NCBI GenBank assembly: GCA_963826115.1
Contig: CAWGVS010000012.1
Location: 608,001 to 672,000, forward strand
DNA from: an uncultured Candidatus Rokubacteria bacterium
GTDB lineage: Bacteria; Methylomirabilota; Methylomirabilia; Rokubacteriales; DASRDR01
Direction of reading: 5' to 3'
Length of the DNA: 64,000 nucleotides
Under the pieces are notes generated by a model, which had not been told where the DNA came from, did not search any database, and worked only from the letters and a program-made list of their open reading frames with translations. Every line of letters begins with the position of its first letter. Positions within the stretch are counted from its first letter, which is position 1. Positions 2,244 to 39,500 of this stretch are shown here, in pieces. The translations under genes were made by a program, and so were the position numbers.

Positions 2244-2446
2244 GAATCGGGGGGCGTCGCCGCCCCCGATCGAGTGGTGAGCCGTGAAGGGATCGAACCT
2301 TCAATCTACTGACTAAGAGGTGGTTCCGTGACCGAACTCCTACGCACTCAGGAGAGCTAAGACGACGAATCTTCTGCGCGGCCGCGTGATGGATGTTCGC
2401 CTGCATGTGGTGGAGTTCGGTGGAGCTTGGCACTGGCATGTCACCG
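2244..2446 (-). repeat. att-like unit 1: hairpin L1 + tRNA-Lys 3' half (2275-2319, 3 mismatches) + arm RA
   Basis: gaatcggggggcgtcgccgcccccgatcgag-tggtgagccgtgaagggatcgaaccttcaatctactgactaagag-gtggttcc...ggcatgtcacc. Confidence 0.95.
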
Positions 2447-2613
2447 GAGATTCGTTATCAGCCAGACTTTAGACATGAAATCCTGCGTCTTTGGTACTTG
2501 CCCGAGGCTGGCGCCACTCGGGTCCCACTGCCAGCCCACGGTGCTCGAGTTGTGAACGACGACACAGATCGGCCGCGGCATCATACGGATCGACCTACTC
2601 AGGTCGTCCACAC

Positions 2614-3597
2614 CTACACTCGTCGTGCTGTCTTCTTCCTTGGCCGAGTGGGGTGCGGCGCGTTTGCGCCTTCGACTCCCTGCTCTCGACGATACTGCCC
2701 CGGGGAGATCCCCATGACCCGTCGGAATACCTTGCCAAAGGCACTGTCGGATTCGTATCCGACCGCGGCGGCAATCGCCGCGAGCTTCGCCGCACGGCTC
2801 TCCCGCATCATGCTCGCGGCCCGCACCATCCGCCACTGCGTGAGGTGCTCAAGGGGCGTTTCCCCGACGAGCGCCCGGAATCGTGCGGCGAACGCCGAGC
2901 GAGACATCGATACCCTGTGCGCCAGGGTCGGCACGGTCCACCCGTGTCCGGGCTGAAGATGTATGAGTCGCAAGGCCTCGCCCATCTGCTCGTCGCCGAG
3001 CGCCCGAAGCCAGCTCGGGCTCCCGCTCAACACCGACGACTGAATGCGGCTGCGCATGGCTTGAACGAAGAGCACCTCGGCCAGCCGATCCACGATCGCG
3101 GCGGATCCGGGCAGGTCCTGCACGGTCTCGGCCGCGATGAACTGCAACGTGGACTGGAACCACGGCGTCGAGTGCGGCCCGGAGGCGGGCAGATGGAGGA
3201 TCGGCGGGAGGTGCTTGACGAGAAGGTCGCTCTCCGGTGACGCGAACGTGAAGCACCCGGCGACGACCGACGTCGGGGCGCCGGGACCCCCGTACCGGAT
3301 GAGCCGCGACTGTTGAAAGGCCTCGGGCGTCGTGACCTCCCGCACGGAGCGGACACGGATCCCGGGGTTATTTCGGAGTGAATAAGTTCGGGGGGCCGGC
3401 AGGAAGACAAAGTCACCCCCGACAAGCGGGGTGAGCGGGAGCTCGTCCACCCCAAGCACGCAGGCGCCGCGGGTCACGATGAGGCAGATGCCTTTGCCGG
3501 CGGGGAACTCGAGGCCGAACGGCGCGGTCAGCTCGATCCGGCCGTAGAGGTGCCCCTGCGTCCGGAGCAGCGCCATGATCTCAGCGAGAACATCCAT
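2614..3597 (-). CDS. AraC-family regulator with N-terminal cupin domain
   Basis: MDVLAEIM...; C-terminal WTVPTLAHRVSMSRSAFAARF and VGYESDSAFGKVFRRVMGISPGQYR double HTH. Confidence 0.93.
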   Translation of the reverse strand: MDVLAEIMALLRTQGHLYGRIELTAPFGLEFPAGKGICLIVTRGACVLGVDELPLTPLVGGDFVFLPAPRTYSLRNNPGIRVRSVREVTTPEAFQQSRLIRYGGPGAPTSVVAGCFTFASPESDLLVKHLPPILHLPASGPHSTPWFQSTLQFIAAETVQDLPGSAAIVDRLAEVLFVQAMRSRIQSSVLSGSPSWLRALGDEQMGEALRLIHLQPGHGWTVPTLAHRVSMSRSAFAARFRALVGETPLEHLTQWRMVRAASMMRESRAAKLAAIAAAVGYESDSAFGKVFRRVMGISPGQYRREQGVEGANAPHPTRPRKKTARRV

Positions 3598-3793
3598 CTT
3601 TCACCCGTCGATCTGGCGTATTGGACCAATAATAGCGCCTTCTAGACATGAATCGTCCATCGCGCATGGCGTAATCTGCCATCGATGAGACGCAGCATAG
3701 ACCGTGACACGCGCGAGGTCCATCCTTCGCCGACAGGCGACGGGGCGGCCGAGCCGACGGTCGGCGAAGCGCCCCGACAACCAGGAGGTCCGG

Positions 3794-4123
3794 ATGTCCA
3801 TGCATCTGCCACGGCCGATCGAGGTCTATTTCTCACCAGGCACGGCCCACGACACGGACGCCCTTGCCACATGCTTTGACGTGAACGCCACGGTCCGGGA
3901 TGAAGGCCGTACGTTCGAGGGTTTGGCTGCCATCACGGCGTGGAGGACCGAGACAAAGAAGCGATATCGCTACACGGTCGAGCCAGTCGAGGCAGTTCAG
4001 CGGGACGGCCAGACCGTCGTCACGGCGAGAGTCTCCGGTGACTTCCCCGGCAGCCCGGTCACTCTGACGTTCATCTTCAGGCTCGAGCGCGACCGCATCA
4101 CATCGCTGGAGATCCGGTCATGA
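3794..4123 (+). CDS. SnoaL/NTF2-like protein
   Basis: [20 protein letters not shown]...[18 protein letters not shown]. Confidence 0.85.
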
Positions 4124-4902
4124 GCGACCATCTCGAGCTGGATGGCCGCCGGGCGCTTGTGACTGGCGGCACCCAGGGGATCGGTCACGCGGTGGCGACG
4201 CGGCTACGCGAGGCCGGGGCGACGGTGCTCACGACCGCCCGCGCCCGGCACGATGACTCGTCCCCGGAAGATCGGTTCGTGGCGGCGGACCTGAGCACCG
4301 CCGACGGCTGCGCCACCGTCGCGGACGCCGTCCGGCAGCGGCTCGGCGGCATCGACATCATCGTCCATGTCGTTGGCGGCTCTTCGGCGCCTGGAGGCGG
4401 ATTCGCGGTCCTGAACGATGCCGAGTGGCAGCGCGCGCTCGATCTCAACCTCTTTCCGGCAGTCCGGCTCGACCGCGCGCTCCTGCCGGCGATGGTGCGC
4501 CAGGGCGCGGGCGTGATCGTCCATGTCACATCGATTCAACGGCAGTTGCCGCTGCCCGACGCCACCCTGGCCTATGCCGCGGCGAAGGCGGCGCTCGCCA
4601 ACTACAGCAAGGGCCTGTCAAAGGAGGTGGCCGCGAAAGGCATCCGCGTAGTCCGCGTCTCCCCGGGCTGGGTGGAAACCGACGCGGCCGTTGGCCTGGT
4701 CAAGAAGTTGGCGGCGAGCCAGGGGACGGACTACGAGGGGGCCCGTCAGGCGCTGATGGCGTCCCTCGGCGGGATCCCGATCGGGCGGCCAGCAAAGCCG
4801 TGGGAGGTCGCCGATCTCATCGCGTTCCTCGTGTCTCCCCGCGCCGCCGCGATCACCGGCACGGAGTACGTGATCGACGGGGGGACAGTACCGACCGCAT
4901 GA
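4120..4902 (+). CDS. Short-chain dehydrogenase/reductase
   Basis: [11 protein letters not shown]-binding motif and YAAAK catalytic motif. Confidence 0.95.
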
Positions 4903-4929
4903 GGGTGCCGGCCTGAGATGAGGCCAAAC

Positions 4930-5130
4930 GAATCGGGGGCGTCGCCGCCCCCCGATCGAGTGGTGAGCCGTGAAGGAATCGAACCTTCAATCTACTGATC
5001 AAGAGTCCCGACCGGGCCCTATCTGAGCCGACCGTAGAGGATCCATCCCCGCAAGATTTCGGCGTTGAGCCGTCGGACGAGAGCGTTCCAGTGCGTCCTG
5101 ATGCGGGTGCGTTGGTAGCCGGTCGGTAGC
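4930..5130 (-). repeat. att-like unit 2: hairpin L1 + tRNA-Lys 3' half (4961-5005, 2 mismatches) + arm RC
   Basis: Core match; the arm ends in a GGTAGC pair at 5114-5130. Confidence 0.9.
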
Positions 5131-5445
5131 CAACAACGGGCGCACGTAGGCGCCCGAACCTACTGATTGGCGATCCGTATCAGGATCATCCTGGCATACA
5201 AGTACGACACCCTCTCTTCAAGGCGGTTCGCGTCTGCATCCGAGCCCAAGGCGCTGCTGGCGATGTCGGATGTCAGCCGGCAGCCGCGCCTCGAGGAGTT
5301 GCCAAGCTACACACGAAAGCGCGCCGCCCGGCGGGATCTCTGGCAATCATGCTCAGCCGCATCCACGCTCGGGCTACAATGCGTTCGCCTGGGGGAGCTT
5401 CATGAGGGCCACTCGCATAGAGGCGGGCACGGCTTGGCCCGTCGA

Positions 5446-7119
5446 ATGATGACGGAGCGCCAGGGCTCCCTGGGCATCGGTTACCCGAGTCAGTCCTCGC
5501 GCCGGGGGTTTCTCCGTCTCTTCGGTTTGGCGGCGGGCGGGGCGGGCCTGGCCGCGTGGCAACCCGAGCCGGCCGCCGCCCAGCAGGGGTCCGCCGGGCC
5601 GCGAGCCGGCGGTGAACTGGTGGTGGCCACTTGGGACGAGCCGATCTCTCTCGACCCGGCCAACACTGCCGCAGCGGGTCTGAACCCGGTCAAACTGATC
5701 TTCGACCCGCTGGTCGTCCAGAGTGGAGACTTCACGCCCTACCCCGGAGTGGCGGAGTCATGGGAGGTGTCCGCGGATGGTAGGGCGTACACCTTCCGGT
5801 TGAAGAGGGACGTCAAGTTCCATGACGGCGCGCCTCTCGACGCCCACGCGGTCAAGTTCAGCCTGGACCGCGCTACCGGTCCCCAGGCAAAGGCGAACTT
5901 CACGATTTCGCTCGCTAGTGTCTACCAGACCACCGAGGTGATCGACGGTCTGACTGCGCGGGTCGTTCTGAAGCAACCGTATGCGGCGTTCTTCCATGCG
6001 CTGGCGGAGGGGTACTACTCGATCGTCTCACCCGATGCGGCGCGGAAGCACGCGATGGAGTTCGATCGTAACCCGGTCGGGAGCGGGCCGTACATCTTTC
6101 AAGAGTGGCTCTCAAAGAGTCATGTCACCCTCAAGAGAAACCCTGACTACGCTTGGGGGTCGATCCTCTTCAAGCACCAGGGGCCGGCGTACCCTGACCG
6201 GCTCACGTTCCGTCTGGTTCCGGAGAGCTCGACCCGTCTGGCCACGATCGAGACCGGCGAGGTCCACGTCGCGCAGGAGATCCCGCCGGAGGAGGTCGAA
6301 CGCCTCAAGAGGCATGCGGGGCTCCAGGTGTTGAGCCGGATCGCTCCCGGCACCTGCGCGCAGCTCATGCTCAACACCACTCAGCCGCCGGTGGACGACA
6401 TCAGGGTCCGCCAGGCCCTGGAGTACGCCGTCGACCAGGACGAGCTGTGCAAGGTGCTCTTCCGGGGTGCCCTCACCCCTGCCCGCACGCCGCTGGCGCC
6501 GGGCACCTTGGGCTACGAGGACAACCTCACCAGGTTCTATCGCACCGACCACGCGAAATCCCGTGCCCTGCTGGAAGCGGCCGGCTGGCGGCTCGGTAAC
6601 GACGGCATCCGCACCAGGCAGGGCCACCGCCTCGAGTTGTCGATCAACATCGTCAGCGCCAGCATCCAGACGCTTCCGATCAAGGTGGCCGAGGTGGTGC
6701 AAGCTCAGCTTCGCGAGGTGGGTATCTTCCTGGTCATCAAGCAGACCGACACCGCCGCCTTGTTCGCGATCCTGAGGGCGGGGAGCCAGCAGATGGTGCT
6801 CGGCTGGCGCGCCGGCTCGGACCCGGACGTCCTGCGCCCGCTCTTTCACTCCAGCTTCTTCGGAAAGTCTCCGGTCGCGCGGATCCGCTTCAAACACGAG
6901 CGGCTCGATCGGTTGCTGGAGCAAGGCACGCTCGAGCTCGACCGCACCAGGCGCCAGGCGATCTACAAAGAGGTTCAGGAGATCGCCCTCCAGAACGCCC
7001 TGGTCGTGCCGCTCTGGAACCGCCACGCCTTCGTAGCGGCGCGATCCGAGGTCCGAGATCTCGGCCTCGACCCGCGGGGAGACGTCAGCCTGTACGACGC
7101 CTGGCTCCCGAGGGGGTGA
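5446..7119 (+). CDS. ABC peptide/nickel-type substrate-binding protein (family 5), Tat signal
   Basis: SRRGFL twin-arginine signal; AESWEVSADGRAYTFRLKRDVKFHDG; PVGSGPY. Start chosen at ATG 5446 rather than the ORF-track start. Confidence 0.92.
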   Translation: MMTERQGSLGIGYPSQSSRRGFLRLFGLAAGGAGLAAWQPEPAAAQQGSAGPRAGGELVVATWDEPISLDPANTAAAGLNPVKLIFDPLVVQSGDFTPYPGVAESWEVSADGRAYTFRLKRDVKFHDGAPLDAHAVKFSLDRATGPQAKANFTISLASVYQTTEVIDGLTARVVLKQPYAAFFHALAEGYYSIVSPDAARKHAMEFDRNPVGSGPYIFQEWLSKSHVTLKRNPDYAWGSILFKHQGPAYPDRLTFRLVPESSTRLATIETGEVHVAQEIPPEEVERLKRHAGLQVLSRIAPGTCAQLMLNTTQPPVDDIRVRQALEYAVDQDELCKVLFRGALTPARTPLAPGTLGYEDNLTRFYRTDHAKSRALLEAAGWRLGNDGIRTRQGHRLELSINIVSASIQTLPIKVAEVVQAQLREVGIFLVIKQTDTAALFAILRAGSQQMVLGWRAGSDPDVLRPLFHSSFFGKSPVARIRFKHERLDRLLEQGTLELDRTRRQAIYKEVQEIALQNALVVPLWNRHAFVAARSEVRDLGLDPRGDVSLYDAWLPRG

Positions 7120-7270
7120 GCGTCCGCGAGGTTCTAGCGTCGAGTCGAGCGCCTCGTGGAGACACACGGCGAGCATCACGAGGCTGCCAGTCGACGAGAT
7201 TCCAACCGACACGAGCCGATGTGGCCCCCTTGGCGCTCTCCAACGACCGGCGATCGCGTCCGCTCGCGCC

Positions 7271-7597
7271 TTACGCAAGTGTCGCGAAGGCGCAGAGTCG
7301 CGCCTCCGTGACCGCGAGCATCCAGCCTTGCAGACTGACGGTGCGACCTTCTTCAAAATCGTCCCGCGTCCGAAGTCGCACGAATTCGCGGAGCTGTATC
7401 CGGCCCAGAGCCCGCAACCTTGCCGTGTCCTCACGCGAGCAGATCAGATCCAGGAGGACCCTCTCGTCTACCTCCTCGGGAACGCTCCGCAGGGACTCGG
7501 CGCCAACAACCCCGGCGCTCTCCCTTTCCTCGAGGAGGCTCAGGAATCTCGCCGCGAGACTTCTGCGGCTCTGCCCTTCAACCCATTCTGCCCACAC
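7271..7597 (-). CDS. Small hypothetical protein downstream of the GMC oxidoreductase (5' end possibly frameshifted)
   Basis: C-terminal RDDFEEGRTVSLQGWMLAVTEARLCA looks protein-like; same strand as the GMC gene. Confidence 0.6.
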   Translation of the reverse strand: MWAEWVEGQSRRSLAARFLSLLEERESAGVVGAESLRSVPEEVDERVLLDLICSREDTARLRALGRIQLREFVRLRTRDDFEEGRTVSLQGWMLAVTEARLCAFATLA

Positions 7598-7673
7598 GGG
7601 CCACGTCAGTTCCGGCAGTCCGCAGCTCAGGGTCGTCTCGGGAATCGGCGGCGCTGGTCGCGGATCTGCGTCC

Positions 7674-9266
7674 TCACTTCATAAGACCTGTTATGCGGTC
7701 GGCCAGCCGCAGTGCAAGGGCAACGATCGTGAGTGTCGGAGTCCCCGAGCCACTCGTCGGGAAAACGGAGCTTCCGGCGACGAAGAGATTCCGCATCCCG
7801 TGGACTCGGCAATGTCGGTCCACGACGCCTTGCTCGGGGTCGTCGTGCATGCGCGTAGTTCCCATGTGATGCCAAGATCCGAGCGTCTCGGCGGGCCACG
7901 TGGCCTCGTTGTCGTCCAACAATACTTCCACCCGGCCGAGTCCGGCACGGCCGAGTTCCCTCCCGATAACTTCCAGGGCTTGCCTTGCGCTCAGCTTGTC
8001 GATCGCGCTCAGCCGCCAGTGCACCGCAACCCGCCGCTGCCCTAGCCGGTCACGCTCCATGCCTAGCGTCACCCGGCTCTCGGGATTTGGGGCCGGATCG
8101 ATCCTCGTGATCAGGTTGATGCGGTCGACGGGCGCCGCCTGCCGACCGCGCGCCCACCAGTAGGCCGCCACCGTCACGTCGTCGAGGTCGCGGATGACGT
8201 TCCCGACGTGCTTCCCGAAGCTGTCCGGCACTTCCCCTTGGCGAAGCTTTCCCAAGAGGTACTTGATGGACGCGACCCCCCTGGAGCTCGACGCCCTGAC
8301 GTATGATTCATCGTATCCCGGGTCGAGTCTCACCTGCACATCGACGACTCTCAAGCGACGCTGGGCGGGCGGCGACAGGGCTAGAGATCCCCTGATGCTC
8401 GTGTTGGCCACGACATGAAATCGGTAGAACTGCGGCATCAAAGAGTCAGCCGGGCGAAAGAGGCCACCGACGAAGGTGGGGTGATCAGCGAAAAACCTCC
8501 CGACGAGATCGTTGCCGTTGCCGAGACCGGTCGGTTGGATCCGATTCGACAGGAGGAGCAGACGGGCGTTCTCGATGCCACCGGCCGCCAGCACGAACAC
8601 CTTCGCCGCCACCAAGAAGCTGGTGCCCGTGAGACAGGCCACGCGGAGATGGGTGACGGTCCTCGCGGTCTCTTCGGTTTCGATTTCGGTCACGTTGGCA
8701 TTGAGGTACGTCGTGACGTTCTCCGCTCGGACAACCTCGTCCCGGTAGGTCTCGCCGAATCTCTTGAGCGGGTCGGGCGCTTCCTGCGTGACCGCCGTGA
8801 TCACGGCGTCTGCGTTCACTGACAGCGGTGCGTATCGATCGAGCGTCTGCCAATAGCTCGCCTCCCAGTGGGAGGAGCTGAGCTGACAGATGGATCGGGC
8901 GCGCTCGTAGAAGGGTTCCAGCTCGGCCTTGCGGAACGGCCACCCACTGTGGGGAATCCAGTCGCGGGCCTCGAAGTCGAGATCAGTAAGCGGTCGGCAT
9001 GCGCCATACCAGTGGTTCGTCGTCCCCCCGAAACAACGCAAGCGCGCCGTCCGGAGGGGGAGGGACGGAAGTCCGGTACTCTTGCCATCGGCGAGCGACT
9101 GGGTGTCTTCGTCGGGTCTGAATCCGCCGCTCTCCAGAAGACACACGCGAAACGGCCGACCGGCGAACTCGCGGGTCAGCGTAATCCCAGCCGCGCCGGC
9201 GCCGATGACGCAGACGTCCGTCTGAACGGTGGACCTGTCCGGTACGGAGCGGGCGTCAACGACCAC
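7674..9266 (-). CDS. GMC-family FAD oxidoreductase
   Basis: VCVIGAGAAG; LAAGGIENARLLL; HHMGTTRM; NLFVAGSSVFPT...PTLTIVALALRLAD. Confidence 0.94.
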   Translation of the reverse strand: MVVDARSVPDRSTVQTDVCVIGAGAAGITLTREFAGRPFRVCLLESGGFRPDEDTQSLADGKSTGLPSLPLRTARLRCFGGTTNHWYGACRPLTDLDFEARDWIPHSGWPFRKAELEPFYERARSICQLSSSHWEASYWQTLDRYAPLSVNADAVITAVTQEAPDPLKRFGETYRDEVVRAENVTTYLNANVTEIETEETARTVTHLRVACLTGTSFLVAAKVFVLAAGGIENARLLLLSNRIQPTGLGNGNDLVGRFFADHPTFVGGLFRPADSLMPQFYRFHVVANTSIRGSLALSPPAQRRLRVVDVQVRLDPGYDESYVRASSSRGVASIKYLLGKLRQGEVPDSFGKHVGNVIRDLDDVTVAAYWWARGRQAAPVDRINLITRIDPAPNPESRVTLGMERDRLGQRRVAVHWRLSAIDKLSARQALEVIGRELGRAGLGRVEVLLDDNEATWPAETLGSWHHMGTTRMHDDPEQGVVDRHCRVHGMRNLFVAGSSVFPTSGSGTPTLTIVALALRLADRITGLMK

Positions 9267-9285
9267 TGGGCCGTCGCTCCGTCAC

Positions 9286-10212
9286 TCAGCGAGGCTCTAG
9301 CGTCGGGTCGAGCGCCTCGCGAAGGCCGTCTCCCAGGGCGTTGATCGAGAGCACCGTCAGCAGGATCATCACTCCGGGAAACGTCGAGACCCACCAGCCG
9401 CTGCGCAGGTACTCCCGGCCGCTGCTCACCATGGCACCCCACTCCGGCGTGGGCGGCTGAACGCCCAAACCGAGGAACGAGAGGCCCGCGGCGACCAGGA
9501 TCGCCGCCGCGACACCGAGCGTCGCGATCGCGATCACCGGAGTCAACGCGTTCGGAAGCACGTGGACCAACATCACTCGCGCATCGCGCCCGCCGGTTGC
9601 GCGGGCCGCTTCCACGTGGAGGCTGCTCTTGGCAGAGAGCACGCTCGCCCGTACAACCCGCGTGTAGTGCGGAACGTACGAGATGCCCACGGCAACCATC
9701 ACGCTTGTCAGACCAGGCCCGAGTATGGCGATCACGGCCAACGCGAGGAGAATGCCGGGAAAGGCGAGCAGCACGTCCATCACACGCATGATGAGCATGT
9801 CACGCCATCCGCCGTGGAACCCGGCCAGCACCCCGAGGACGAGCCCACATGTCAACGAGATCCCGACTGACATGAGCCCGATCCGGAGGGAGAGTCGGGC
9901 GCCGTAGAGTACACGACTGAAGACATCACGGCCGAGGTGGTCACTGCCGAAGATCTGCTGCGCGCTCGGTGGTTCCAGGACCCTCGCCGAGTCGATCTTG
10001 ATGGGATCGCGGGGCGCGACCAGCGGCGCCAGAGTCGCCAAGACCGCGACAAGGCTCAGGACCGCGCCACTCGCGAGCGCGACCCGGTCCCGTCGGAGGC
10101 GCCGAAGAGCCTCCAGCCAGGGGCCCCGGGGCGCCCGCGGCGCTCGGCAACAGAGGGCCGCCGCGGCCGGGCCTGCGGGCGCAGGCCATCCGGCACGACC
10201 TCGCTCACTCAT
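9286..10212 (-). CDS. ABC peptide permease (DppC-like)
   Basis: GSDHLGRDVFSRVLYGAR; EAARATG; LSFLGLGVQPPTPEWG; NALGDGLREALDP. Confidence 0.93.
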   Translation of the reverse strand: MSERGRAGWPAPAGPAAAALCCRAPRAPRGPWLEALRRLRRDRVALASGAVLSLVAVLATLAPLVAPRDPIKIDSARVLEPPSAQQIFGSDHLGRDVFSRVLYGARLSLRIGLMSVGISLTCGLVLGVLAGFHGGWRDMLIMRVMDVLLAFPGILLALAVIAILGPGLTSVMVAVGISYVPHYTRVVRASVLSAKSSLHVEAARATGGRDARVMLVHVLPNALTPVIAIATLGVAAAILVAAGLSFLGLGVQPPTPEWGAMVSSGREYLRSGWWVSTFPGVMILLTVLSINALGDGLREALDPTLEPR

Positions 10213-11146: not shown

Positions 11147-11461
11147 CGGGGCGGGCGCGGCAAAGCCACAGCTCTCACTGGTCCCACTGGGCGGCGCGAC
11201 GACGTCCCCCCCAAGGCGTGGTCACGCTTCAGAAGGCCCTGAGCACTCACGCTGCGGCGGGCGGGCGCTGGCCGTTGCGGGCGTGACCTAGCCGTTACGG
11301 TGTAGACCCGTCCTCGCCGCCGCCCACCCGGATCGCTGCTCCCGCGGCTCTGACCGAACCCATCGCGCCGGCACCCATACCTGGTTGACCTGGAGGCGAC
11401 GTGTGTCGCACGATGCGCGCGTTGGGCGACCCCGGCCGAACACGCGGGCGACGGAGATCCC

Positions 11462-13168: not shown

Positions 13169-13274
13169 AGGTTTCTCCCTCCCACCGCCCGAGCGTGCGC
13201 ATCAGCGCCACCGCGTTCGAGGTGCGCCCCCGCTGACGCGTAGGTGGCAAGACGCATCGCTTCCGGCCGCTCTT

Positions 13275-28055: not shown

Positions 28056-28279
28056 CGGCCCTCTCAGCCGAGGGCGGGGTTCTGCCAGGCTTCTCCCGAC
28101 TGGCGCGTCCGGCCGGGATCGGCTAGAGTCCCGCCGTCCCGGCGAGACCTTGGCCGGGTCAACGGGCGCGTTCGAGCGGCACTCCTGAGCGAGTAACGAG
28201 GGTCCGGCCAGGGCGCCGGCCCTCGATCGGTCATATAGAGACCTCCAAAAAGGCCTGTGCCCCCAGGTGGGAGGTGCAT

Positions 28280-30285: not shown

Positions 30286-30334
30286 GGGAAAACGAGCTGA
30301 ATCGGAAACTGAAAGGCTAGGGGAAGGAAGGTTC

Positions 30335-30985: not shown

Positions 30986-32533
30986 TCCGCTGGCTCCCCC
31001 GGCTGGTTGCCCGCCTGCCACTGAGCGTCCACGGGAAGCTCCTGTTCGCCTTCCTGGCGATCGTCGGCCTGCTGATCGCGGTCGGCGCGGTGGGCCTCCA
31101 GGTGCTGAGCGGCGTGAACCGGCGCGCCGAGGACATGGTCAAGCTTCAGCGCAAGATCGCCGCCTACCGGCAGCTCCAGCACGACACGACGAGCCAGCTC
31201 TACGGCGTGTCCTCGGCCCTCCTCGTTCCCGACGACCGGACCCTCGAGGCGACGCTCCGCCAGCTGAACCAGTTCGGGTACGATCTCGACCGGCTCGCCT
31301 TCGTCGCCCAGGACGAGGTCGAGCTCTTCGGGCGCGTGCGCGAGGACTACGAGGAGTTCATCAAGATCGTCACCCAGGTGATCGAGCTGATCCGGGCCGG
31401 GAAGGGGCCGGCCGGCCGCGAGCTCCAGCTGAGCCGGGCCGGCCCTCTGGCCGACCGCCTCGAGCGGCTGACGAACGAGCTGGTGAACAAGGCCGAGGCG
31501 GACATGGTGGCCAGCATCGAGGCCAGCCAGGACGCTTACGTGACGTCCCAGCGGGTGGTCGTCGGGTTCGCGGTTGGAAGCATCTTGCTTGCGCTGGTCC
31601 TCGGCTACGGCATCTCGTGGTCCGTCATCGGGCCGGTGCAGCAGATGGACGTCCGGCTCCGCGAGATCGCCGGGGGCGACTTCGCCAAGCGCGTGGAGAT
31701 CTCGAACCGGGACGAGCTGGGCGCGCTGGCGGCGAACCTGAACCGGATGAGCGACGAGCTGGGCCGTGCTCTACCGCCAGCTCGCGGCGGCCAACCAGCA
31801 CAAGTCCGAGTTCCTGGCCAACATGTCCCACGAGCTCCGGACGCCGCTCAACGCGATCATCGGCTTCTCCGAGGTCCTCCACGAGCGGATGTTCGGCGAG
31901 CTCAACGAGAAGCAGGCCGAGTACATCCAGGACATCCTCGCCTCCGGCCGCCATCTGCTCTCGCTGATCAACGACATCCTGGATCTCTCGAAGGTGGAGG
32001 CGGGGCGGATGGAGCTCGACGTCGCGCCGTTCGACCTGCCGACCGCGCTCGAGAGCGCCGTGACCCTGGTCAAGGAGCGCGCCGTCCGCCGCGGGCTGAG
32101 CCTCGACCTCACCGTGGACTCCGGGCTGGGAACGCTCGTCGGCGACGAGCGGAAGGTCAAGCAGATCTTGCTGAATCTCCTCTCGAACGCGGTGAAGTTC
32201 ACGCCCGACGGAGGACGCGTCACGCTGATGGCGACGCCGGCCGGTGGGCCTTCGGGGGCTCCCGAGATGGTCGAGATCGCGGTCAGCGACACCGGACTCG
32301 GGATCGCCCCAGCCGACCAGGCGACGATCTTCGAGGAGTTCCGCCAGGTCGGGAGCGGATCACAGAAGCAAGAGGGAACGGGTCTCGGGCTCACGCTGAC
32401 GAAGAAGTTCGTCGAGCTCCACGGCGGACACATCTGGGTCTCGAGCGAGGTGGGAAAGGGCTCGACGTTCACGTTCACCCTGCCGAGGAAGCCAGGGCGC
32501 CCGCGTGAAGGCGCCCACGGGCCGAGCCTTTGA
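30982..32533 (+). pseudogene. HAMP-domain sensor histidine kinase; frameshift near 31768
   Basis: Two TMs and a HAMP domain in one frame; FLANMSHELRTPLN, NAVKFT, DTGLGI and GTGLGL in the next. Confidence 0.9.
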
Positions 32534-32648
32534 GGTGACAAGGACGGTGACCTGCTTGCCGTCGCCCTCTGGGGCTGACTTCGAGGTGAGGATGCTATCG
32601 GTACGGTGTTTCGCCGTGCAGGCCCGTGACGAGGCGAATCTCGGCCCG
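32533..32648 (-). pseudogene. Degenerate fragment of the same cyclase family as 22712-26089
   Basis: TAKHRTDSILTSKSAPEGDGKQVTVL versus TPKHLAEKILTSKSALEGERKQVTVL. Confidence 0.8.
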
Positions 32649-32744
32649 AATTGATGCGGCGCGGCGCACTGCCAAGAACACTCATGGCCAGGCGGCTCGG
32701 CCGCACGATGAGCAGACCGATTCAAACTCCCCGTGCTAAAGCAC

Positions 32745-32960
32745 GAATCGGAGGGCGTTGCCGCCCCCCGATCGAGTGGTGAGCCGTGAAGGAATCGAAC
32801 CTTCAACCTACTGATTAAGAGTCCCAACCGGCCGCAACGCACGGCACGCCATCGGCAGCTATCCGCACGTCAGATTAAGGAAGCGCCGCGAGGCGACCTG
32901 TTCGCGCCTCACGGTACCTTCGCGCGAGTTGGAACCGTCTGGAACCAGAATCCGACGCCA
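32745..32960 (-). repeat. att-like unit 8: L1 + tRNA-Lys 3' half (32777-32821, exact) + arm RB
   Basis: Core match; tcccaaccggccgcaacgcac; GGAACC pair at 32931-32946. Confidence 0.93.
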
Positions 32961-33088
32961 GGTGCGCCCACAAGTCATTTCGCACGCGAGACCGTGCCCA
33001 GCGCGAGCTCCATTGCCAGGATTCACATCGATCGGTCGCCGCATCCTGCACTGGGATCAATTCCGACTCAGTTCGTATTGGGGGGAAC

Positions 33089-33634
33089 ATGAGAACCTCC
33101 GCCTTGGTCTTGTGCATCATTCTTTCGGGTTGTGCTGCGAGTCCCGAGAAGCTCGACTCGGTTGGGAAGACCGAGGCGGCACGAATGGTGCCGCCCCTAA
33201 GGCGCTTTTCCAGCTACGCGAGTTATGAACTCAAGCCGATGGCACTAAGCCCGGCCGTTCAAAGCGCGCCGGAAAAGGTGAAGGCTGCGGGAGAGCTCGA
33301 GAATACGCTACGGGCCAAGCTTCAGCCTCTGCTTGAGCAGTGGAATGCGGCATCCCGCGATCGGTCCGGCACCCTCGTCATCGAGCCCCAACTTGCGTCC
33401 CTGAGGATTGTCAGCGGCGGCGCGAGGTTCTGGGCCGGAGCATTGGCGGGAGAGTCGAGCATTGACATGGACCTTGCCGTTACCGACCAAGGCACGGGTC
33501 AGCAAATTGCGAAGCCACGCATCACCCTCAAGGCCAACGCCATGGCCGGAGGATGGTCGGTCGGCAAGAGCGACCAGAACCTGCTCGACTACATTGCGAG
33601 CATCGCGCACGCATACATGACGATGAACTACTGA
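33089..33634 (+). CDS. Lipoprotein (DUF4410-like), sole gene of cassette 8
   Basis: Lipobox LSGC; SGGARFWAGALAG motif. Confidence 0.85.
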   Translation: MRTSALVLCIILSGCAASPEKLDSVGKTEAARMVPPLRRFSSYASYELKPMALSPAVQSAPEKVKAAGELENTLRAKLQPLLEQWNAASRDRSGTLVIEPQLASLRIVSGGARFWAGALAGESSIDMDLAVTDQGTGQQIAKPRITLKANAMAGGWSVGKSDQNLLDYIASIAHAYMTMNY

Positions 33635-33747
33635 GACCAGAGCCCCGGTGGCCCCCGCCAGGGACTGAGCGCGTGCGGGGGCGCTCAACCGCTCCGCTCG
33701 GTACAAGAACCCTGCCGAAATAGGCTGAGTCTCCGGCCCCCCCCAAC

Positions 33748-33950
33748 GAATCGGGGGGCGTCGCCGCCCCCCGATCGAGTGGTGAGCCGTGAAGGAATCG
33801 AACCTTGAACCTGCTGATTAAGAGGTGGTTCCGGGCCCGAGCTCCCACGCACGCAGACGATCTAAGCGTATGTATTTCCTGCGAGGCCGCCTGACCGATG
33901 GTCGTCTGAGTGCGGCTTAGTCCGGTGGAATTTAGCACTGGCATGTCACC
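33748..33950 (-). repeat. att-like unit 9: L1 + tRNA-Lys 3' half (33780-33824, 2 mismatches) + arm RA
   Basis: Direct sequence match. Confidence 0.95.
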
Positions 33951-34143
33951 GGCGATTCATCACCAGCCAGACCTTAGACGTAAGGTCCTCCGTTTTGGTA
34001 CTTGCCCAAGGCCGGCGCCACTCGGGTCCCATTGCCAGCCCACGGTGCTCCAGTTGTGAACGACGACACAGATCGACGGCGGCACTGAACGGGCCGGGGG
34101 GCAACACTGCCCGCCCTTTTTGTGTTCCGTCATTGATCCCGAC

Positions 34144-35580
34144 TCACGCGCTTGGCCTGATGTTCTGGTTCAGTCGAAACAGGTTTGCCGGATCGTATCT
34201 GGTCTTCAAAGCGACGAGGCGCTTGTAGTTCGCGGCGCCGTAGCTGTTGCGCACCAACTCCTCGCCCTCCTCGCCAAGGCCCGCGAAGTTGAGATAGGCG
34301 CGGCCGCCGGAATGATGCTTCATGTCGCCCCAGAAGGCGCGCGACCAGGACAGGTTGCGCTGGTCGTCGGCCGGATTTATCCAAATCGAATCGATGCTCA
34401 GCATGTAGCGCATATTGCGCTCGCCGAAGGCGGTCGCGTTGCCAGCCACTCGACCGACGGCGCCGCCCAGATACCACACCGAGCAGAGCGTCAGGTCGGA
34501 GGGGCGATCAGCGGCGTGTGGCGCGATCTCGTCGATCATCCGGTCGTCTAGGCCATTGAGATAGAGCGATTTGAAGTAGGCGCGATGAACGCCCTTAGGG
34601 AACAGCCCATCATAGAGCTTCTGCACGCTGCAGTAGGGCATCCGGCCGCTGAAATCCAGCACCGGCGTGGCCAACTCGCGCAGAGGTCTGACGGCTTGTT
34701 CGCCCTCGTCCGCGGGGCCCGCCCACACCCCGGCCAGGGCCAAGACCCGCGCGCCCCAGGTCTCCTCGGGATACTCCGGATCGTTGGGGATGGTGGAGAA
34801 TTCGACCAGCGTTCCACCGATCTCGTCGGGTGCGGTTGCCATGAAGTCGCGCCAGCCCTTCATGACCTGGGTGGCGTCCTCGGCCCGGTAGATGGCACCC
34901 AGGAACATCACCTCCGGCCCGACGGGATGCAGCTGGAACTCGAACGAGGTGACGACGCCAAAATTGCCGCCGCCCCCGCGCACGGCCCAGAAGAGATCGC
35001 TGTTCTCGGCCGCGCTGGCGGTGCGAAGCTGGCCGTCCGCGGTGACGATGTCGACCGACAGGACATTGTCGAGGCTGAGGCCATACTTGCCGCGCAGCCA
35101 GCCGAGGCCGCCGGCGAGTGTCAGCCCGCCGACGCCCGTCGCCGAAATGACGCCGCCCGGCGTCGCCAGACCGTGGACTTGCGCCTCGCGGTCGAAATCG
35201 CCCCAGGTCGCGCCGCCCTGCACCCATGCCCGCCGCGCTGTGGAATCGACCCGGACCGCGTTCATCCGCGACAGATCGATCATGAGCCCCCCGTCGCACG
35301 AACCGCTGCCCGCTGAGTTGTGGCCCCCGCCCCGCACTGCAGTCAGAAGCCCGTTCTCACGCGCGGCATTGACCGCGTGAACGATGTCGGCGGTGCCGCT
35401 GCAGCGGGCGATGAGCGCCGGCTTCTTGTCGAACATGCCGTTCCAGATGAGCCGCGCCCTGTCATAGCCGTCGTCACCCGGTTGGAGCAGTTCGCCGCGC
35501 AGATTGGCGCGCAACGCCTTTGCCGCCGCTTCAAGACTGTGTCCGGACGACGCGCCCGCAGTGGCTTGTCGGTGTGTCAT
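34144..35580 (-). CDS. FAD-linked oxidoreductase (BBE/VAO family)
   Basis: RGGGH, DLFWAVRGGGGNFGVVT, YLNF and KTRYDPANLF motifs. Confidence 0.95.
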   Translation of the reverse strand: MTHRQATAGASSGHSLEAAAKALRANLRGELLQPGDDGYDRARLIWNGMFDKKPALIARCSGTADIVHAVNAARENGLLTAVRGGGHNSAGSGSCDGGLMIDLSRMNAVRVDSTARRAWVQGGATWGDFDREAQVHGLATPGGVISATGVGGLTLAGGLGWLRGKYGLSLDNVLSVDIVTADGQLRTASAAENSDLFWAVRGGGGNFGVVTSFEFQLHPVGPEVMFLGAIYRAEDATQVMKGWRDFMATAPDEIGGTLVEFSTIPNDPEYPEETWGARVLALAGVWAGPADEGEQAVRPLRELATPVLDFSGRMPYCSVQKLYDGLFPKGVHRAYFKSLYLNGLDDRMIDEIAPHAADRPSDLTLCSVWYLGGAVGRVAGNATAFGERNMRYMLSIDSIWINPADDQRNLSWSRAFWGDMKHHSGGRAYLNFAGLGEEGEELVRNSYGAANYKRLVALKTRYDPANLFRLNQNIRPSA

Positions 35581-35735
35581 GCTTTGCCCCCTTGCTCTCC
35601 GCGCAGCAACGCAGGCCAGCGCGGCACGTTCGAAATCAGGACGGTCCAAGACTAATGGTTGAGCCTGGACCTTCGTAAGAGGCAGAATGGACACAACCGG
35701 GGCAAATGTGACACCGCGCTGATCTGGGAGGATCA

Positions 35736-36866
35736 ATGGCCAGATCCGAAGCGAAGTTGCCGCGCATCTGTCTGCTCGCCGCGGCGGAAACCTCTCCCTC
35801 GGTGCTCTATGGCCTCTATGACGTCTTGAGTACGGCAGGGCCGGTCTACTCAGAACTGACCAGCGGGAATCCGGCGGAGAAGATGCTCGACGTCAGGATC
35901 GTGGCCGCCACCATCGATCCGTTCCGCTGCTACGGCAGCGTGATGGTCGAACCGCATGATGCCATCGACCGGCTACATGAAACCGATGTCGCGATCGTGT
36001 GCGATATGTATACGCCGATCGACACGCCGCCGCGCGGGCGCTACCGGCGAGAGATCGAGTGGCTGAACCGAATCTACGCCAAGGGTGCCATCCTCGGTTC
36101 CGTCTGCTCGGGCTCCCTGGTGCTCGCCGAGGCGGGCCTTCTGGACGGACTGCAGGCAGCCGGACATTGGGCCTATCGCGAATTGTTTCGTGAACACTAT
36201 CCGAAGGTGAAGTTTCGGGTGGATTCGATCTTAAGTGTTGCTGGTGAGCAAGACCGGATCGTGACGGCGGGAGGTGTGACCGCCTGGCAGGAACTGGCGC
36301 TCTACCTGATTGCCCGGCTTTGCGGGCCCCAGCATGCGATCAGAACGGCCAAGATCCACATGCTGTCGGATCACTCGGACGGCCAGTTACCCTTTGCCGT
36401 GATCACGCTGCGTGTGGGGAACACGGACGCCGTCATCGCCGACTGCCAACACTGGATAACTGAACATTACGCGTGCCAGAATCCTGTGACCAGCATGATT
36501 GCTCACTCGGGCCTCAAGCCCCGCACCTTCGCCCGGCGGTTTCTGGCGGCGACCGGCTTTCATCCGGTGGACTATGTGCACGCGGTTCGCATCGAGGAGG
36601 CGAAACAACGCCTGGAAACCGATACCGTCAGCGTCGAGGAAATCGGCCACCTCGTGGGCTATGAGGACCCCACCTTCTTTCGCCGCCTGTTCAAGCGCAA
36701 GGTCGGCCTGACCCTTGCGGCATACCGGCGAAAATTCTCCAAGATCGCCACAATCGGACATTCGGGGACGCAATACTCAATTCCGACGCCTCGACGGCGG
36801 GATTTCGGGATGACGGCCCACGGGATCAAGCTGCCCACCGCCCGGGTCGTCCGGGGAACCCCGTGA
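35736..36866 (+). CDS. GlxA-family (DJ-1/PfpI + AraC) regulator
   Basis: SVCSGSLVLAEAGLLDG; RTFARRF; VGYEDPTFFRRLFKR. Confidence 0.93.
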   Translation: MARSEAKLPRICLLAAAETSPSVLYGLYDVLSTAGPVYSELTSGNPAEKMLDVRIVAATIDPFRCYGSVMVEPHDAIDRLHETDVAIVCDMYTPIDTPPRGRYRREIEWLNRIYAKGAILGSVCSGSLVLAEAGLLDGLQAAGHWAYRELFREHYPKVKFRVDSILSVAGEQDRIVTAGGVTAWQELALYLIARLCGPQHAIRTAKIHMLSDHSDGQLPFAVITLRVGNTDAVIADCQHWITEHYACQNPVTSMIAHSGLKPRTFARRFLAATGFHPVDYVHAVRIEEAKQRLETDTVSVEEIGHLVGYEDPTFFRRLFKRKVGLTLAAYRRKFSKIATIGHSGTQYSIPTPRRRDFGMTAHGIKLPTARVVRGTP

Positions 36867-37006
36867 ACCAAGCGGAACGAATTCCTACCTCTAGCTCGCC
36901 CCGCTTGCCCATCCGTTGCGGGCAGGGCGCGCTCCTGATCTCAGACTCGGACAGAACTCGGACAAAATAGCGAGGGCGGCCCGGAGGCCGCCCTCTAACC
37001 ACCCGG

Positions 37007-37530
37007 ATTTCGGCTTCGTCGCCGACAACCGCAAGGCGATCTCGGCCAAGTACGGGCTGATCAGCCCGCAGTCGATGGCCGCGATCCAGCGGGCGCTGCT
37101 CACCTGGACGCGAAGGGCGGCGAAGAGCTGTTCGGCGAGCCGGCGCTCGACCTGACCGACCTGATGCGCACGGATCTCAGCGGCACGCGGGATCGTCAAC
37201 GTCCTGGCGGCCGACCAGCTCGATCCTGAAGCCGCGGCTCTACTCGAGCTTTCTGCTGTGGCTGCTGTCGGAGCTGTTCGAGAACGCTGCCGGAAGTCGG
37301 CGATCTCGATAAGCCGAAGCTCGTGTTCTTCTTTGACGAGGCTCATCTGCTGTTCGACGACGCGCCCGCGGCGCTGCGGCAGCGGGTCGAGCAGGTCGTG
37401 CGGATCATCCGGTCGAAGGGGGTCGGCGTGTACTTCTGCTCGCAGTTCCCGGACGACGTGCCGAACGAGATCCTGGGCCAGCTCGGCAACCGGATGCAGC
37501 ACGCGCTGCGCGCCTATACCCCGCGCGACC
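37007..37530 (+). pseudogene. Internal fragment of a DUF853/HerA-like ATPase with several frameshifts
   Basis: [43 protein letters not shown] and [17 protein letters not shown] spread across frames. Confidence 0.88.
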
Positions 37531-38015
37531 TGAGCTTCTCGGCCCGGGACACTGTCGCCGTCCTGGTCTTTCCGGACGGTCGGCCGCTCGCCCTCGCGCT
37601 AGAGAATCAGGAGTAGGTCGGCCGGCTGGCGCTCGAAATGCTGGCGTCCGATAGCGACGAGGCCGGCCCCTCAGAAGCGAAGCAAGGTTGGCTCGAGGCG
37701 GGGAGGCGGCCGCGTCTGTCCGTGACGTTCACGCCCCCGCGCTCGGTACGCTTCCAGTTCAGCACGGCGGGCCCAGCGGCGGAACAAGACGTTCAGGTCG
37801 ACGAGATCATCACGCGAATCGTCGGCGAGTGGCCGGACTACATCCCGCCATGTGCCGCCCTTGACGGGGCCTGTCCCGGACGCGTACCGTCGGGTGACGC
37901 TGGCCGGAGCGGGCTTCATCCGCCAGCCCCCTTGCGGCCGAGAACGAGCTTTATGTCGACTGTCCTCCGGCCGGTCGTATGCATTCCACGGCTGCTGTGA
38001 ACGGCTCTGGAGAAA

Positions 38016-38180
38016 ATGGAAGGACAAACCCCAGAGTGCCGAGCCGTAAGGCCCCGCAGTCTCAAGACCATCCGCCGCCCGACGACGCCCTGCCCTCGCT
38101 GCGGCGCGCCGGTGCGCACGATAAAGCTCCCGCTGAGCTCGCTCCGGCGGCTCGACTGGCGGCTCTTCGGCGAGGCGTGA
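38016..38180 (+). CDS. Small ORF (54 aa) with a CPRCG motif, absent from the ORF track
   Basis: GGAG RBS; MEGQTPECRAVRPRSLKTIRRPTTPCPRCGAPVRTIKLPLSSLRRLDWRLFGEA*; co-oriented with the next two genes. Confidence 0.4.
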   Translation: MEGQTPECRAVRPRSLKTIRRPTTPCPRCGAPVRTIKLPLSSLRRLDWRLFGEA

Positions 38181-38208
38181 GACTCAGCGTGCAGGGAGAG
38201 TAACCTCC

Positions 38209-38853
38209 ATGGAACTGCTCATTGTGGCGATCGCTGTGATCTGTGTCGTTGTGATCGTCATCATCGCCGTCGTCGCCCCGACTCAGCCAGCCAATCACCC
38301 GGCGCGGCGAGAGGCAATCCGGACGCGGCAAGAGGCAATCGGCGAGGAGGCGAGGCATTTCTTCGCCGACGCGAGCAAGGCGCTCTGCCTCCCTCCGGTG
38401 CAGACGCACATCGTCCTCGCCCCTGGTGAGGTCGCCATCCGCCAGGAGTCCGTACAGCTTCACGAGTCGCGCGCCGTACGCCTCTATGGCGGCGTCGGAA
38501 CCCGGATCGGGAAGATCTATCTCGGCGGCGGGACATCCAGCTCCTACCAGACCATCAAGCCGATCGACACGGGAACGCTGCTGCTGACCACCGAGCGGCT
38601 TGTCTTCGATGGGGGAAAGGAAAATCGCATCGTCAAGGCGAAAGAGATCCTTTCGGTCCAGCCCTCCGAGGATGCGATCGAGGTGAGTACGTCACGTCGG
38701 CAGAAGAGTCAGGTCTATACCGTCAGCAACCCGCTGATCTGGGCGACGCTCATCAAGACCGTGGCCGGCGGAAACGTCGAGGCGCTCAAGCAGGCCATCG
38801 CGAATGGAGCCGCGAGGCAGGGCGGATCGCTGCCACCTGGGCAGGGAACATAG
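38209..38853 (+). CDS. Hypothetical protein with N-terminal membrane anchor
   Basis: Hydrophobic N-terminus; IDTGTLLLTTERLVFDG (PH-like by inference). Confidence 0.8.
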   Translation: MELLIVAIAVICVVVIVIIAVVAPTQPANHPARREAIRTRQEAIGEEARHFFADASKALCLPPVQTHIVLAPGEVAIRQESVQLHESRAVRLYGGVGTRIGKIYLGGGTSSSYQTIKPIDTGTLLLTTERLVFDGGKENRIVKAKEILSVQPSEDAIEVSTSRRQKSQVYTVSNPLIWATLIKTVAGGNVEALKQAIANGAARQGGSLPPGQGT

Positions 38854-38856
38854 AGT

Positions 38857-39351
38857 ATGCATGGCCCCGTCCCGCGTATGACCGAGCGGGAGTGGATGGC
38901 TATTGTCGATGCCCTCTATGGATTGCCGGTCAGCGCCAGTCACCGCAGCATCGCCTCCGGCCTGTCCCGTCGGCTCGTCGAAGCGGACGCGGCAAGCGGG
39001 ATCGGGGCCAAGTGGGGAGTGAACGCTCGAGCACTCGCCCAGCGGCTCCAGGCGGCTTCCATGGAGGAGGCGCTGAACCTCGTGCGGATCGTCCGCGATC
39101 TCTGGAAGAACCCAAGCGGCGACTGGTCTGTGGCCTTCTACGATCATGGCGTCCGATTTGAACGAGAGCCTCGACAAGAGGTGCGAGCGACCGCCTTTCC
39201 CACCGACGAGCAAATGTCCATGCTGTTCGACTTGATGCGCGCAGACCGCCGGGAGGAGTTCGACTCGCTTTGCGAGTCGCTCGGCGTGCTGAATCCCGCT
39301 GCACTCTGGGCGGGACCGCGGCACGGCGGGCGTCCCTCCAAGGTGCCGTAA
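38857..39351 (+). CDS. Hypothetical protein
   Basis: ORF starts 3 nt after the previous stop; protein-like composition. Confidence 0.65.
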   Translation: MHGPVPRMTEREWMAIVDALYGLPVSASHRSIASGLSRRLVEADAASGIGAKWGVNARALAQRLQAASMEEALNLVRIVRDLWKNPSGDWSVAFYDHGVRFEREPRQEVRATAFPTDEQMSMLFDLMRADRREEFDSLCESLGVLNPAALWAGPRHGGRPSKVP

Positions 39352-39462
39352 GGCCCTACTCTCCTGGTGCAGTGAAGAATGAGCATGGCCGTCCTCGGGG
39401 CTCCTGGCGGACGAGATCACGCCTCGCCGCCGGGCGCTGGGATGGGCTGCAACTGCTTGCCC

Positions 39463-39496
39463 AAAAAAGAATCGGGGGGCGTTGCCGCCCCCCGAT
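39463..39496 (-). terminator. Intrinsic terminator after tRNA-Lys (prototype of hairpin L1)
   Basis: Minus strand ATCGGGGGGCG-GCAA-CGCCCCCCGAT followed by TCTTTTTT. Confidence 0.9.
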
Positions 39497-39500
39497 CGAG

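Follow-up and report, generated by a model that had tools for sequence, protein, structure and literature searches.

The DNA stretch analyzed here (the window) comprises 64,000 nucleotides of the genome of an uncultured Candidatus Rokubacteria bacterium and corresponds to positions 608001-672000 of contig C12 of this source genome, G000. It contains part of a tandem array of partial copies of a tRNA-Lys gene, together with the gene cassettes lying between these copies. Positions given without a contig refer to the window; G001 to G014 and similar labels denote related genomes, L0xx labels denote fetched loci, and E1 to E9 are the cassettes of the window.

Using ARAGORN and Rfam, four tRNA genes were identified in the window, all on the minus strand: tRNA-Lys(CTT) (39501-39576), which is intact and the putative attachment target, tRNA-Arg(CCG) (39591-39666), tRNA-Arg(TCG) (42678-42754) and tRNA-His (42811-42886). 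Repeat finding and direct listing identified, besides the tRNA-Lys(CTT) gene itself, nine copies of its 3' 45 nt, hereafter the core, all oriented like the tRNA and with zero to three mismatches to it. Cores 1 to 3 lie at 2275-2319 (three mismatches), 4961-5005 (two) and 13587-13631 (two), core 4 at 15986-16030 (one), cores 5 to 8, which are identical to the tRNA, at 17264-17308, 21691-21735, 26360-26404 and 32777-32821, and core 9 at 33780-33824 (two). Each copy extends from the tRNA's 3' terminus up to the anticodon loop, ending on the plus strand with ...CTGATTAAGAG or ...ACTGATTAAGAG, and the adjoining arms part immediately beyond. At all ten junctions of the window, the tRNA included, identity extends precisely to the anticodon loop and no further. 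ARAGORN called no partial copy as a tRNA.

When up to eight substitutions were allowed, the 45-mer occurred 14 times in the 6.24-Mb assembly, always on one strand of C12 between 581387 and 647545; at this threshold no copy was found elsewhere in the assembly and none was inverted. Because all 14 occurrences lie on one strand of a single 66-kb stretch, chance origin is excluded. The initial annotation had let the array start at 2244 of the window; its start has to be moved, since four further cores lie farther left (C12:581387, 593851, 598056 and 599700). In total, 13 partial copies and 13 intervals are found over 66 kb, in one orientation and at a single locus. Counted outward from the tRNA, the mismatches are 0, 2, 0, 0, 0, 0, 1, 2, 2, 3, 2, 0, 3 and 5, at best a loose gradient, and five of the 13 partial copies are identical to tRNA-Lys. 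The left chromosomal flank (C12:575001-581386) is matched at 85-90% by sequence to the left of the G001 and G014 arrays. As this match lies directly beside the outermost and most degenerate core, the island is the whole 66 kb from that flank to the tRNA. Its GC content is ∼65%, compared to 72-74% in the flanks; per 2-kb step it is 63.5-69.5% from ∼2000 to 40000 and 72-76% on both sides.

The core was found in 19 of 41 related genomes, G000 counted. Multi-copy arrays are present in G003 (13 copies on one 790-kb contig), G008 (16 copies on several contigs) and G014 (8 copies), while G002 carries two copies and several genomes one, so that array size in the genus ranges from 1-2 up to 13-16 copies.

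Left and right arms of the junctions

Directly past the tRNA's 3' terminus, on the same strand, lies the L1 module (39467-39500), a G+C-rich hairpin followed by a T-run. From the shape of this hairpin, L1 would be the intrinsic terminator of the tRNA. Further copies of ∼40 nt start at 2242, 4928, 13555, 15952, 17230, 32743 and 33746, and L1 is therefore found left of units 1-5, 8 and 9 as well as of the tRNA. Left of units 6 and 7 a different module, L2, is present (21631-21690, with a second copy at ∼26300-26359), which comprises ∼60 nt with two direct GGTAGCA repeats and a hairpin unlike that of L1. L2 can be identified as the presumptive tail, proximal to the attachment (att) site, of a deleted integrase gene. 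On the right side, units 1, 3, 5, 6, 7 and 9 carry the RA arm, units 4 and 8 the RB arm and unit 2 a third type, RC, whereas the tRNA copy of the core is followed by the tRNA's own 5' half. This assignment agrees at all ten junctions with the L1/L2 and RA/RB/RC lists of the initial annotation.

The RA arm is a module of ∼130 nt with a sharp end at ...TGGCACTGGCATGTCACCG. It was found at 2320-2446 in E1, and further copies lie at 13632-13758, 17309-17435, 21736-21862, 26405-26531 and 33825-33951. In all 17 RA-type intervals of four genomes the arm is full length and stops at this same last nucleotide, with unrelated cargo beyond. It holds three copies of GGAGTT(CG), one inverted and two direct, which may be putative arm-type binding sites. 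The RB arm of E4 lies at 16031-16146 and that of E8 at 32822-32937. A distal RB remnant (26626-26682), 88% identical to 32881-32937, is located within E7, ∼90 nt past its RA arm, and looks like the fossil of a deleted junction. The idea that RA acts as an RNA or tRNA mimic was dropped: Rfam gave no match in the arms at gathering thresholds, and by eye RA supplies no anticodon stem.

Among 51 junctions of six genomes, the right arms formed 11 clusters (RA with 21 members, RB/RC-like 12, RD 5, RE 2, six singletons, and the native tRNA 5' half 4), and the left arms comprised four recurrent types and nine singletons. The proposal that several element lineages share the site is borne out by this diversity. 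The arms assort freely, L1 occurring with seven right-arm types, L2 with four and L3 with six. L1 was found in 21 junctions of five genomes, and the sequence upstream of it is cassette-specific.

Where unlike arms are joined, similarity extends to the anticodon loop's 5' edge and stops there in 51/51 junctions of the six genomes. The cores left of E1 differ among three genomes, including at bases 6 and 7 nt from this edge, although the RA arm next to them is 94% identical, and these core polymorphisms do not follow the cassette on their right. If they are older than the insertions, the exchange would have taken place within the last 5-6 nt, that is inside the anticodon loop. Both results are consistent with recombination within the core at the anticodon loop, as had been suggested initially. 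In addition, three junctions of G014 (contig C7, L023/L024) carry 4-5 extra bases in the anticodon-loop part (CTGATTA, then 4-5 nt, then AGAG), and one junction of G008 is one base short inside the loop; such extra or absent bases would fit errors at the point of exchange.

To compare cassettes between genomes, the arrays were cut at the cores and the intervals compared all against all. Four cassettes proved common to several genomes, end to end or nearly so: E1 matched G001 at 96.3% over 2642 nt and G003 at 95.3% over 2634 nt, interval G003_e9 matched G014c7_e5 at 96.3% over 1516 nt, G008c3_e3 matched G014c7_e4 at 91-93% over 5.8 kb, and G003_e2 matched the second half of the G001 interval at 93%. 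For the six cross-genome pairs of these four cassettes, 60-130 nt to the left and to the right of the two bounding cores were compared by global alignment. The inner arms, R(n) and L(n+1), were 76-94% identical in five of the six pairs, whereas the outer arms, L(n) and R(n+1), were 52-63% identical, which is about the level of unrelated sequences in this alignment. In the sixth pair (G003_e2 and G001), L(n+1) is kept (88%) and R(n) is unrelated (52%), because the left core of G001 is truncated. The expected pairing of R(n) with L(n+1) across genomes accordingly holds for individual cassettes, with the sixth comparison keeping L(n+1) only, and fails for arm types. The arm left of E1 illustrates this, being L1 in G000, another hairpin in G001 and L2 in G003; the core right of E1 is truncated in G001 and G003, where the L1 hairpin alone remains. 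The travelling units thus appear to be the intervals between cores. Between the species sharing E1, identity is 95-96% for E1 itself and just 78-81% for the chromosomal genes on the right side of the tRNA; the cassette must therefore have been transferred recently between species.

The RA motif was found in 16 stretches among 185,579 species genomes, all from four uncultured Candidatus Rokubacteria assemblies, and in five stretches of metagenome contigs; the viral collection gave no match. Two stretches of one 157-kb metagenome contig represent further arrays, L071 with only a 98-aa integrase fragment and L074 with none.

Cassettes, cargo and the integrase remnant

For cargo analysis, 30 open reading frames (ORFs) of the window were picked by length and third-position G+C and scanned against Pfam. 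The cassettes hold one to six genes in both orientations, and the scanned cargo consists of ordinary accessory metabolic and regulatory functions. E1 (2320-4960, 2.6 kb), which is present whole in two other species at 95-96%, encodes an AraC/cupin regulator, a SnoaL-like protein and a short-chain dehydrogenase. E2 (5006-13586, 8.6 kb) contains peptide-type ABC transporter genes, a GMC oxidoreductase and an acyl-CoA synthetase, E3 (13632-15985, 2.4 kb) a DUF2079 membrane protein, and E4 (16031-17263, 1.2 kb) has no family match. E5 (17309-21690, 4.4 kb) encodes an ArsR-type regulator, an APH-type kinase, a class-III aminotransferase and an integrase fragment and ends in L2. E6 (21736-26359, 4.6 kb) carries a DinB-like protein and a 1171-aa cyclase/AAA/TPR regulator; its L2 arm is present and the integrase is gone. 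E7 (26405-32776, 6.4 kb) is composite, with the RA arm, the RB remnant, two NMT1-like binding proteins, SCO1 and a HAMP histidine kinase. E8 (32822-33779, 1.0 kb) encodes a DUF4410-like protein, and E9 (33825-39500, 5.7 kb) a BBE-type FAD oxidase, an AraC/DJ-1 regulator and four ORFs without family match. Within E7, the two binding-protein genes are tandem NMT1/THI5-like paralogs (28458-30265) with direct repeats ∼992 nt apart at 73-97% identity, and the histidine kinase is split into overlapping frames at 30982-32533 (HAMP ORF 30982-32508, HisKA/HATPase ORF 31766-32533), either a frameshifted gene or an assembly indel.

Among the 30 scanned ORFs, no recombinase, transposase, replication or transfer domain was found, nor a helicase/primase domain as in the replication module of tycheposons. 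PHROGs and NCBIfam were also searched with the unassigned ORFs of E4, E7 and E9 and yielded nothing informative, the one match (E = 0.008) being to a family of no known function.

The BBE-oxidase/AraC-DJ-1 pair of E9 (34116-36865) recurs inverted at 92% in G000 (contig C7, 295-3049), directly downstream of tRNA-Met(CAT); the same cargo is therefore found in islets at different tRNAs. The pair is also present in G008 and G014 (92%) and in G011 (93%, partial, at a contig end). Homologs of E6 and E9 cargo in G004, G008, G012 and G014 lie in fetched stretches in which no tRNA-Lys core was found, which makes them uninformative on cassette borders.

A six-frame search of G000 with PF00589 gave ten matches, of which only one, the C-terminal fragment in E5, lies in the array. 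It is part of an ORF (21152-21703, plus strand) whose last ∼100 codons correspond to the C-terminal end of a tyrosine integrase and which reads into core 6. Positions 112-165 of PF00589 match 21404-21568, including the region of the catalytic Tyr, and the N-terminal ∼300 codons are gone. An integrase fragment of ∼100 aa is thus found in one of 13 intervals, and no interval encodes an intact recombinase. No serine recombinase was found in the array; the single one of G000 lies on another contig. When G000 was searched with a full-length relative, only a second fragment was found beyond that of E5, beside tRNA-Ala(GGC).

A search with the 81-aa fragment (E ≤ 1e-8) gave matches in 78 of 183 genomes belonging to the same order (G045 and G176, flagged as unpublished, included). 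The relatives are 68-88% identical over the fragment length. In eight of the 11 loci fetched outside G000, all from other genera, a tRNA-Lys gene lies directly at the 3' end of the integrase gene, with the anticodon CTT in L030, L034 and L036 and TTT in five; the remaining three loci lack tRNA-Lys. L034 and L036 also show a tail of GGTAGCA repeats and a hairpin as in L2. It is concluded from this arrangement that the integrase lineage of the fragment probably targets tRNA-Lys. L039 encodes a full-length relative of 431 aa with a SAM-like N-terminal domain (PF14659) and a catalytic domain (PF00589), which is less than 31% identical to phage integrases.

In L039 (3510-4805, minus strand), the integrase frame stays open across the terminator hairpin and a further ∼70 nt, within the tRNA-Lys gene, so that its last codons would differ between the integrated and excised forms. 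For Mx8 IntP, attP is said to lie inside the 3' end of int; the L039 frame, which passes the hairpin into the tRNA before its first stop, resembles this, as integration would alter the last codons.

Ten integrase fragments begin at varied residues (182 to 333) and keep the att-proximal end in all cases, and within the genus the gene has been lost to varying extents at 10/10 L2 arms. The varied cut points of the ten fragments indicate independent deletions, and loss of the integrase by such deletions would be common. RA appears to be tied to the L2-type integrase by association in decayed elements only.

Origin of the island

The island is likely the product of tandem accretion by serial site-specific integration at the anticodon loop, of elements that now lack an integrase, like cis-mobilizable elements (CIMEs) or the remnants in tycheposon islands. 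Small circular elements would have integrated successively into tRNA-Lys(CTT) through tyrosine integrases exchanging strands in the anticodon loop. The attachment site of each element would consist of a terminator hairpin (L), the 45-nt tRNA 3' half and an element-specific right arm (R). Upon integration, the tRNA-half copy and terminator of the incoming element would complete the tRNA, and the earlier 3' half with its terminator would be displaced outward. Each junction would then receive L from the cassette on its left and R from the cassette on its right, and for that reason the arms look shuffled exactly at the core. On this model the present 3' half and terminator of tRNA-Lys come from the last cassette, E9, and several lineages (RA, RB, RC, RD and others) would use the one site. 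Later deletion of the integrase genes would leave att-flanked, CIME-like cassettes of metabolic and regulatory genes, which, in this genome, site-specific recombination could mobilize only with an integrase supplied from outside. The anatomy of the junctions suggests site-specific recombination; from it we infer strand exchange within the loop, an insertion order with the newest element beside the tRNA, and loss of the integrases as opposed to their original absence.

Accretion is a known mode of island building, seen here in an uncultured member of the Rokubacteria. Unusual are the size, with 13 units (12-16 in relatives), the absence of a working integrase, with no intact one in ∼43 intervals of six genomes, and the preservation of full-length arms. 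Williams reportedly set out, in 2002, a scheme of sublocations for integration sites in tRNA genes. As far as the available text of the Islander study goes (PMC4383910), 2083 islands belong to the anticodon-centred class A and 3760 have 3' fragments, each island is required to have its own integrase, and tandems of three or more occurred four times among 3919 islands. The island resembles class A as outlined there: an intact tDNA lies at one end and same-orientation 3' fragments, here 13 on the strand of the tRNA, toward the other, the identity block extends from the 3' end to the anticodon loop, with the arms diverging right after ...CTGATTAAGAG, and the related integrase belongs to the tyrosine integrases with a SAM-like and a catalytic domain. 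Foreign composition and variable presence among relatives are likewise found, in the GC drop and the 1-16 copies within the genus. It differs from class A in that none of its 13 tandem intervals has an intact integrase, the island itself encoding only the ∼100-aa fragment, and in that the copied stretch includes the terminator hairpin past the end of the tRNA.

In the parts of the streptococcal literature on integrative and conjugative elements, integrative and mobilizable elements and CIMEs considered here, tandem accretion is described, with a worked example at a tRNA-Lys gene. As in the CIMEs described there, the cassettes keep attL and attR and lack integration and transfer genes, and the site is a tRNA-Lys gene; conjugation or mobilization remains were not seen among the ORFs scanned, the units are far more numerous, and the host is an uncultured Rokubacteria member. 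Of the remnants that a CIME origin by decay would leave, integrase fragments are present at the L2-type arms and none at the 21 L1-type arms. For the tycheposons of Prochlorococcus, the text consulted (10.1101/2020.12.28.424599) describes successive integrations at one tRNA in which newcomers drive older ones on into the island, and islands with fragmented integrases, scattered partial tRNAs and niche-adaptive cargo. The present cassettes differ from tycheposons in having neither the helicase/primase replication module nor an intact integrase, and their conserved R arm of ∼130 nt and copied terminator do not appear in that part of the tycheposon description.

Several observations weigh against the accretion model. 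From the R type of an interval, the L type at its other end cannot be predicted: among the 51 junctions, RA intervals end in L1, L2, L3 and others, and a simple picture of one lineage with one attP is too neat. Some intervals are composite, with truncated internal cores or decayed internal sites. A search of G000 for an intact integrase from the cognate lineage gave none, and among the PF00589 matches in G001, G002, G003, G008 and G014 none lies inside the fetched arrays; two weak fragments lie on G008 contigs C69 and C75, 6.5 kb and 33 kb from cores. None of the 21 L1-type arms has an integrase remnant beside it, so that loss and original absence look the same there. The acyl-CoA synthetase part of E2 is found again, at 93-96%, in G004 and G013 and twice in G008, with unlike sequence flanking it on either side. 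This recurrence and that of the BBE/AraC pair indicate that cargo has also been exchanged between att contexts, by some other route. In Logan contigs of four sequencing runs (share ≤0.18), neither an excised or circular form nor a convincing junction-bridging contig was found. Some short Logan contigs match without differences and represent a close relative at low depth; in the few joints listed (for example 37010 to 39501, 33951 to 40317 in X3) the sides are <30 nt at 90%, and these may come from other organisms or repeats. Finally, all genomes compared are metagenome-assembled, with 1-7% contamination by marker-gene estimate (5.3% for G000).

A less probable alternative is an integron-like cassette pool, in which the integrase-less cassettes (1-9 kb) are working satellites moved in trans by the integrases of rare helper elements. 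Each cassette would keep a complete attachment site of ∼210 nt, consisting of the terminator hairpin, the tRNA half and the ∼130-nt R arm, and the tRNA-Lys locus would be a shared, growing cassette store of the genus with exchange between species. Such a pool would account for the 17/17 full-length RA arms that share their end nucleotide in front of unrelated cargo, for the retention of L1 in 21 junctions and for the five of 13 partial cores still identical to the tRNA. It also fits the 95-96% identity of cassettes free of integrase between species with 78-81% identity in their core genes, and the uniform lack of intact integrases in the ∼43 intervals, shared by the metagenomic arrays L071 and L074. 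A recent arrival alone would, however, explain the intact arms. Integrase remnants cut at many points speak for decay by deletion, and decay of att sites as well is evident from truncated cores and composite intervals. The circular form was not seen, and no helper with RA at one end and a whole int-L2 at the other was found in 15 genomes of the genus, the viral collection or the five metagenome stretches. The contigs with full-length integrases provided no helper either: L039 is just 5.3 kb long and L040 and L041 lack a tRNA, and around two full-length integrases of the same genus (61-64% identity) and one fragment no tRNA was found within 6-8 kb. The likeness to integron arrays, with one locus, one orientation, a recurring recombination site and cassettes common to several species, is an analogy only, since a resident integrase and attI are lacking (no intact PF00589 gene lies in or beside the array), the site is a tRNA half with arms and not attC, and a cassette carries up to six genes on both strands, in contrast to the single, mostly promoterless ORFs of integrons.

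Homologous recombination alone, with the ∼200-nt L-core-R repeats as portable homology for RecA-type reshuffling after DNA uptake and without any integrase, is improbable. The L1-core-RA junctions are ∼78-87% identical over ∼205-214 nt, which is long enough for exchange, the cognate integrase is absent from the genome, and the same cargo occurs with different arms. Against this, the change from one arm to the other in junctions of unlike arms (L1-RB, L2-RA, L3-RD and others) falls precisely on the loop edge and not, as would be expected, at scattered points of the shared stretch, remnants of an integrase lineage linked to tRNA-Lys lie at junctions, and the first copies require a process by which the tRNA half is duplicated.

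That the metagenome assembler joined strain variants of a single island end to end is a very unlikely origin of the array: the genome is metagenome-assembled with 5.3% estimated contamination and repeats could mislead an assembler, but the array sits within an 880-kb contig, all 13 intervals differ from each other, and similar arrays were assembled independently in G003 (790-kb contig), G008, G014 and the 157-kb metagenome contig. A tRNA-derived, non-autonomous transposon of ∼205 nt (L-core-R), copied whole like a miniature inverted-repeat transposable element (MITE), is already contradicted and hardly credible, for although four junctions of the window share the L1-core-RA make-up at 204-206 nt, neither terminal inverted repeats nor copies beyond the locus or in inverse orientation were found, the left and right arms assort freely, and shared cassettes keep their inner and not their outer arms. 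The initial annotation had argued against a MITE-like unit and named target-site duplications flanking whole units as a test; none were found around the ∼205-nt L1-core-RA units, and the single locus, the single orientation and the inner arms staying with the cargo support its view.

Other tRNA genes and significance of the locus

Displaced tRNA 3' halves were also observed at other tRNA genes of G000. At 40309-40346, 2.3 kb downstream of the tRNA-Arg(TCG) gene, 38 nt of its 3' half are present as a copy, and G002 and G003 lack the intervening stretch (∼40357-42677) in their syntenic region; this stretch is a separate small islet at a second tRNA. On contigs C6, C12 and C1/C7, such copies were found for Thr(CGT) (four, C6:31629-47770), Arg(TCT) (two), Met(CAT) (two) and Ala(GGC) (one), and integrase fragments adjoin tRNA-Ala(GGC) and tRNA-Arg(TCT). 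At C12:686301, ARAGORN called a tRNA-Pyl(cta), the 3' half of which matches that of tRNA-Arg(TCT), 5 kb away, at 97%, and which is probably a mutated displaced copy and not a suppressor tRNA.

The tRNA-Lys locus cleanly exemplifies, in nature, how site-specific accretion on a single tRNA can produce a 66-kb island, ∼1% of the genome, from many small cassettes. Its host belongs to an uncultured soil lineage, and one narrow literature search (Rokubacteria, integrase, tRNA) for mobile elements of Rokubacteria returned only unrelated papers. Tandem arrays of this length lie beyond the range of island finders anchored on integrases, which would miss such an island or merge it into a single unit. 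If the cassettes do move in trans, the locus would represent a second way, based on a tRNA, of meeting the need that integrons meet, and accessory metabolism would be traded as att-tagged cassettes, each spared the cost of its own recombinase.

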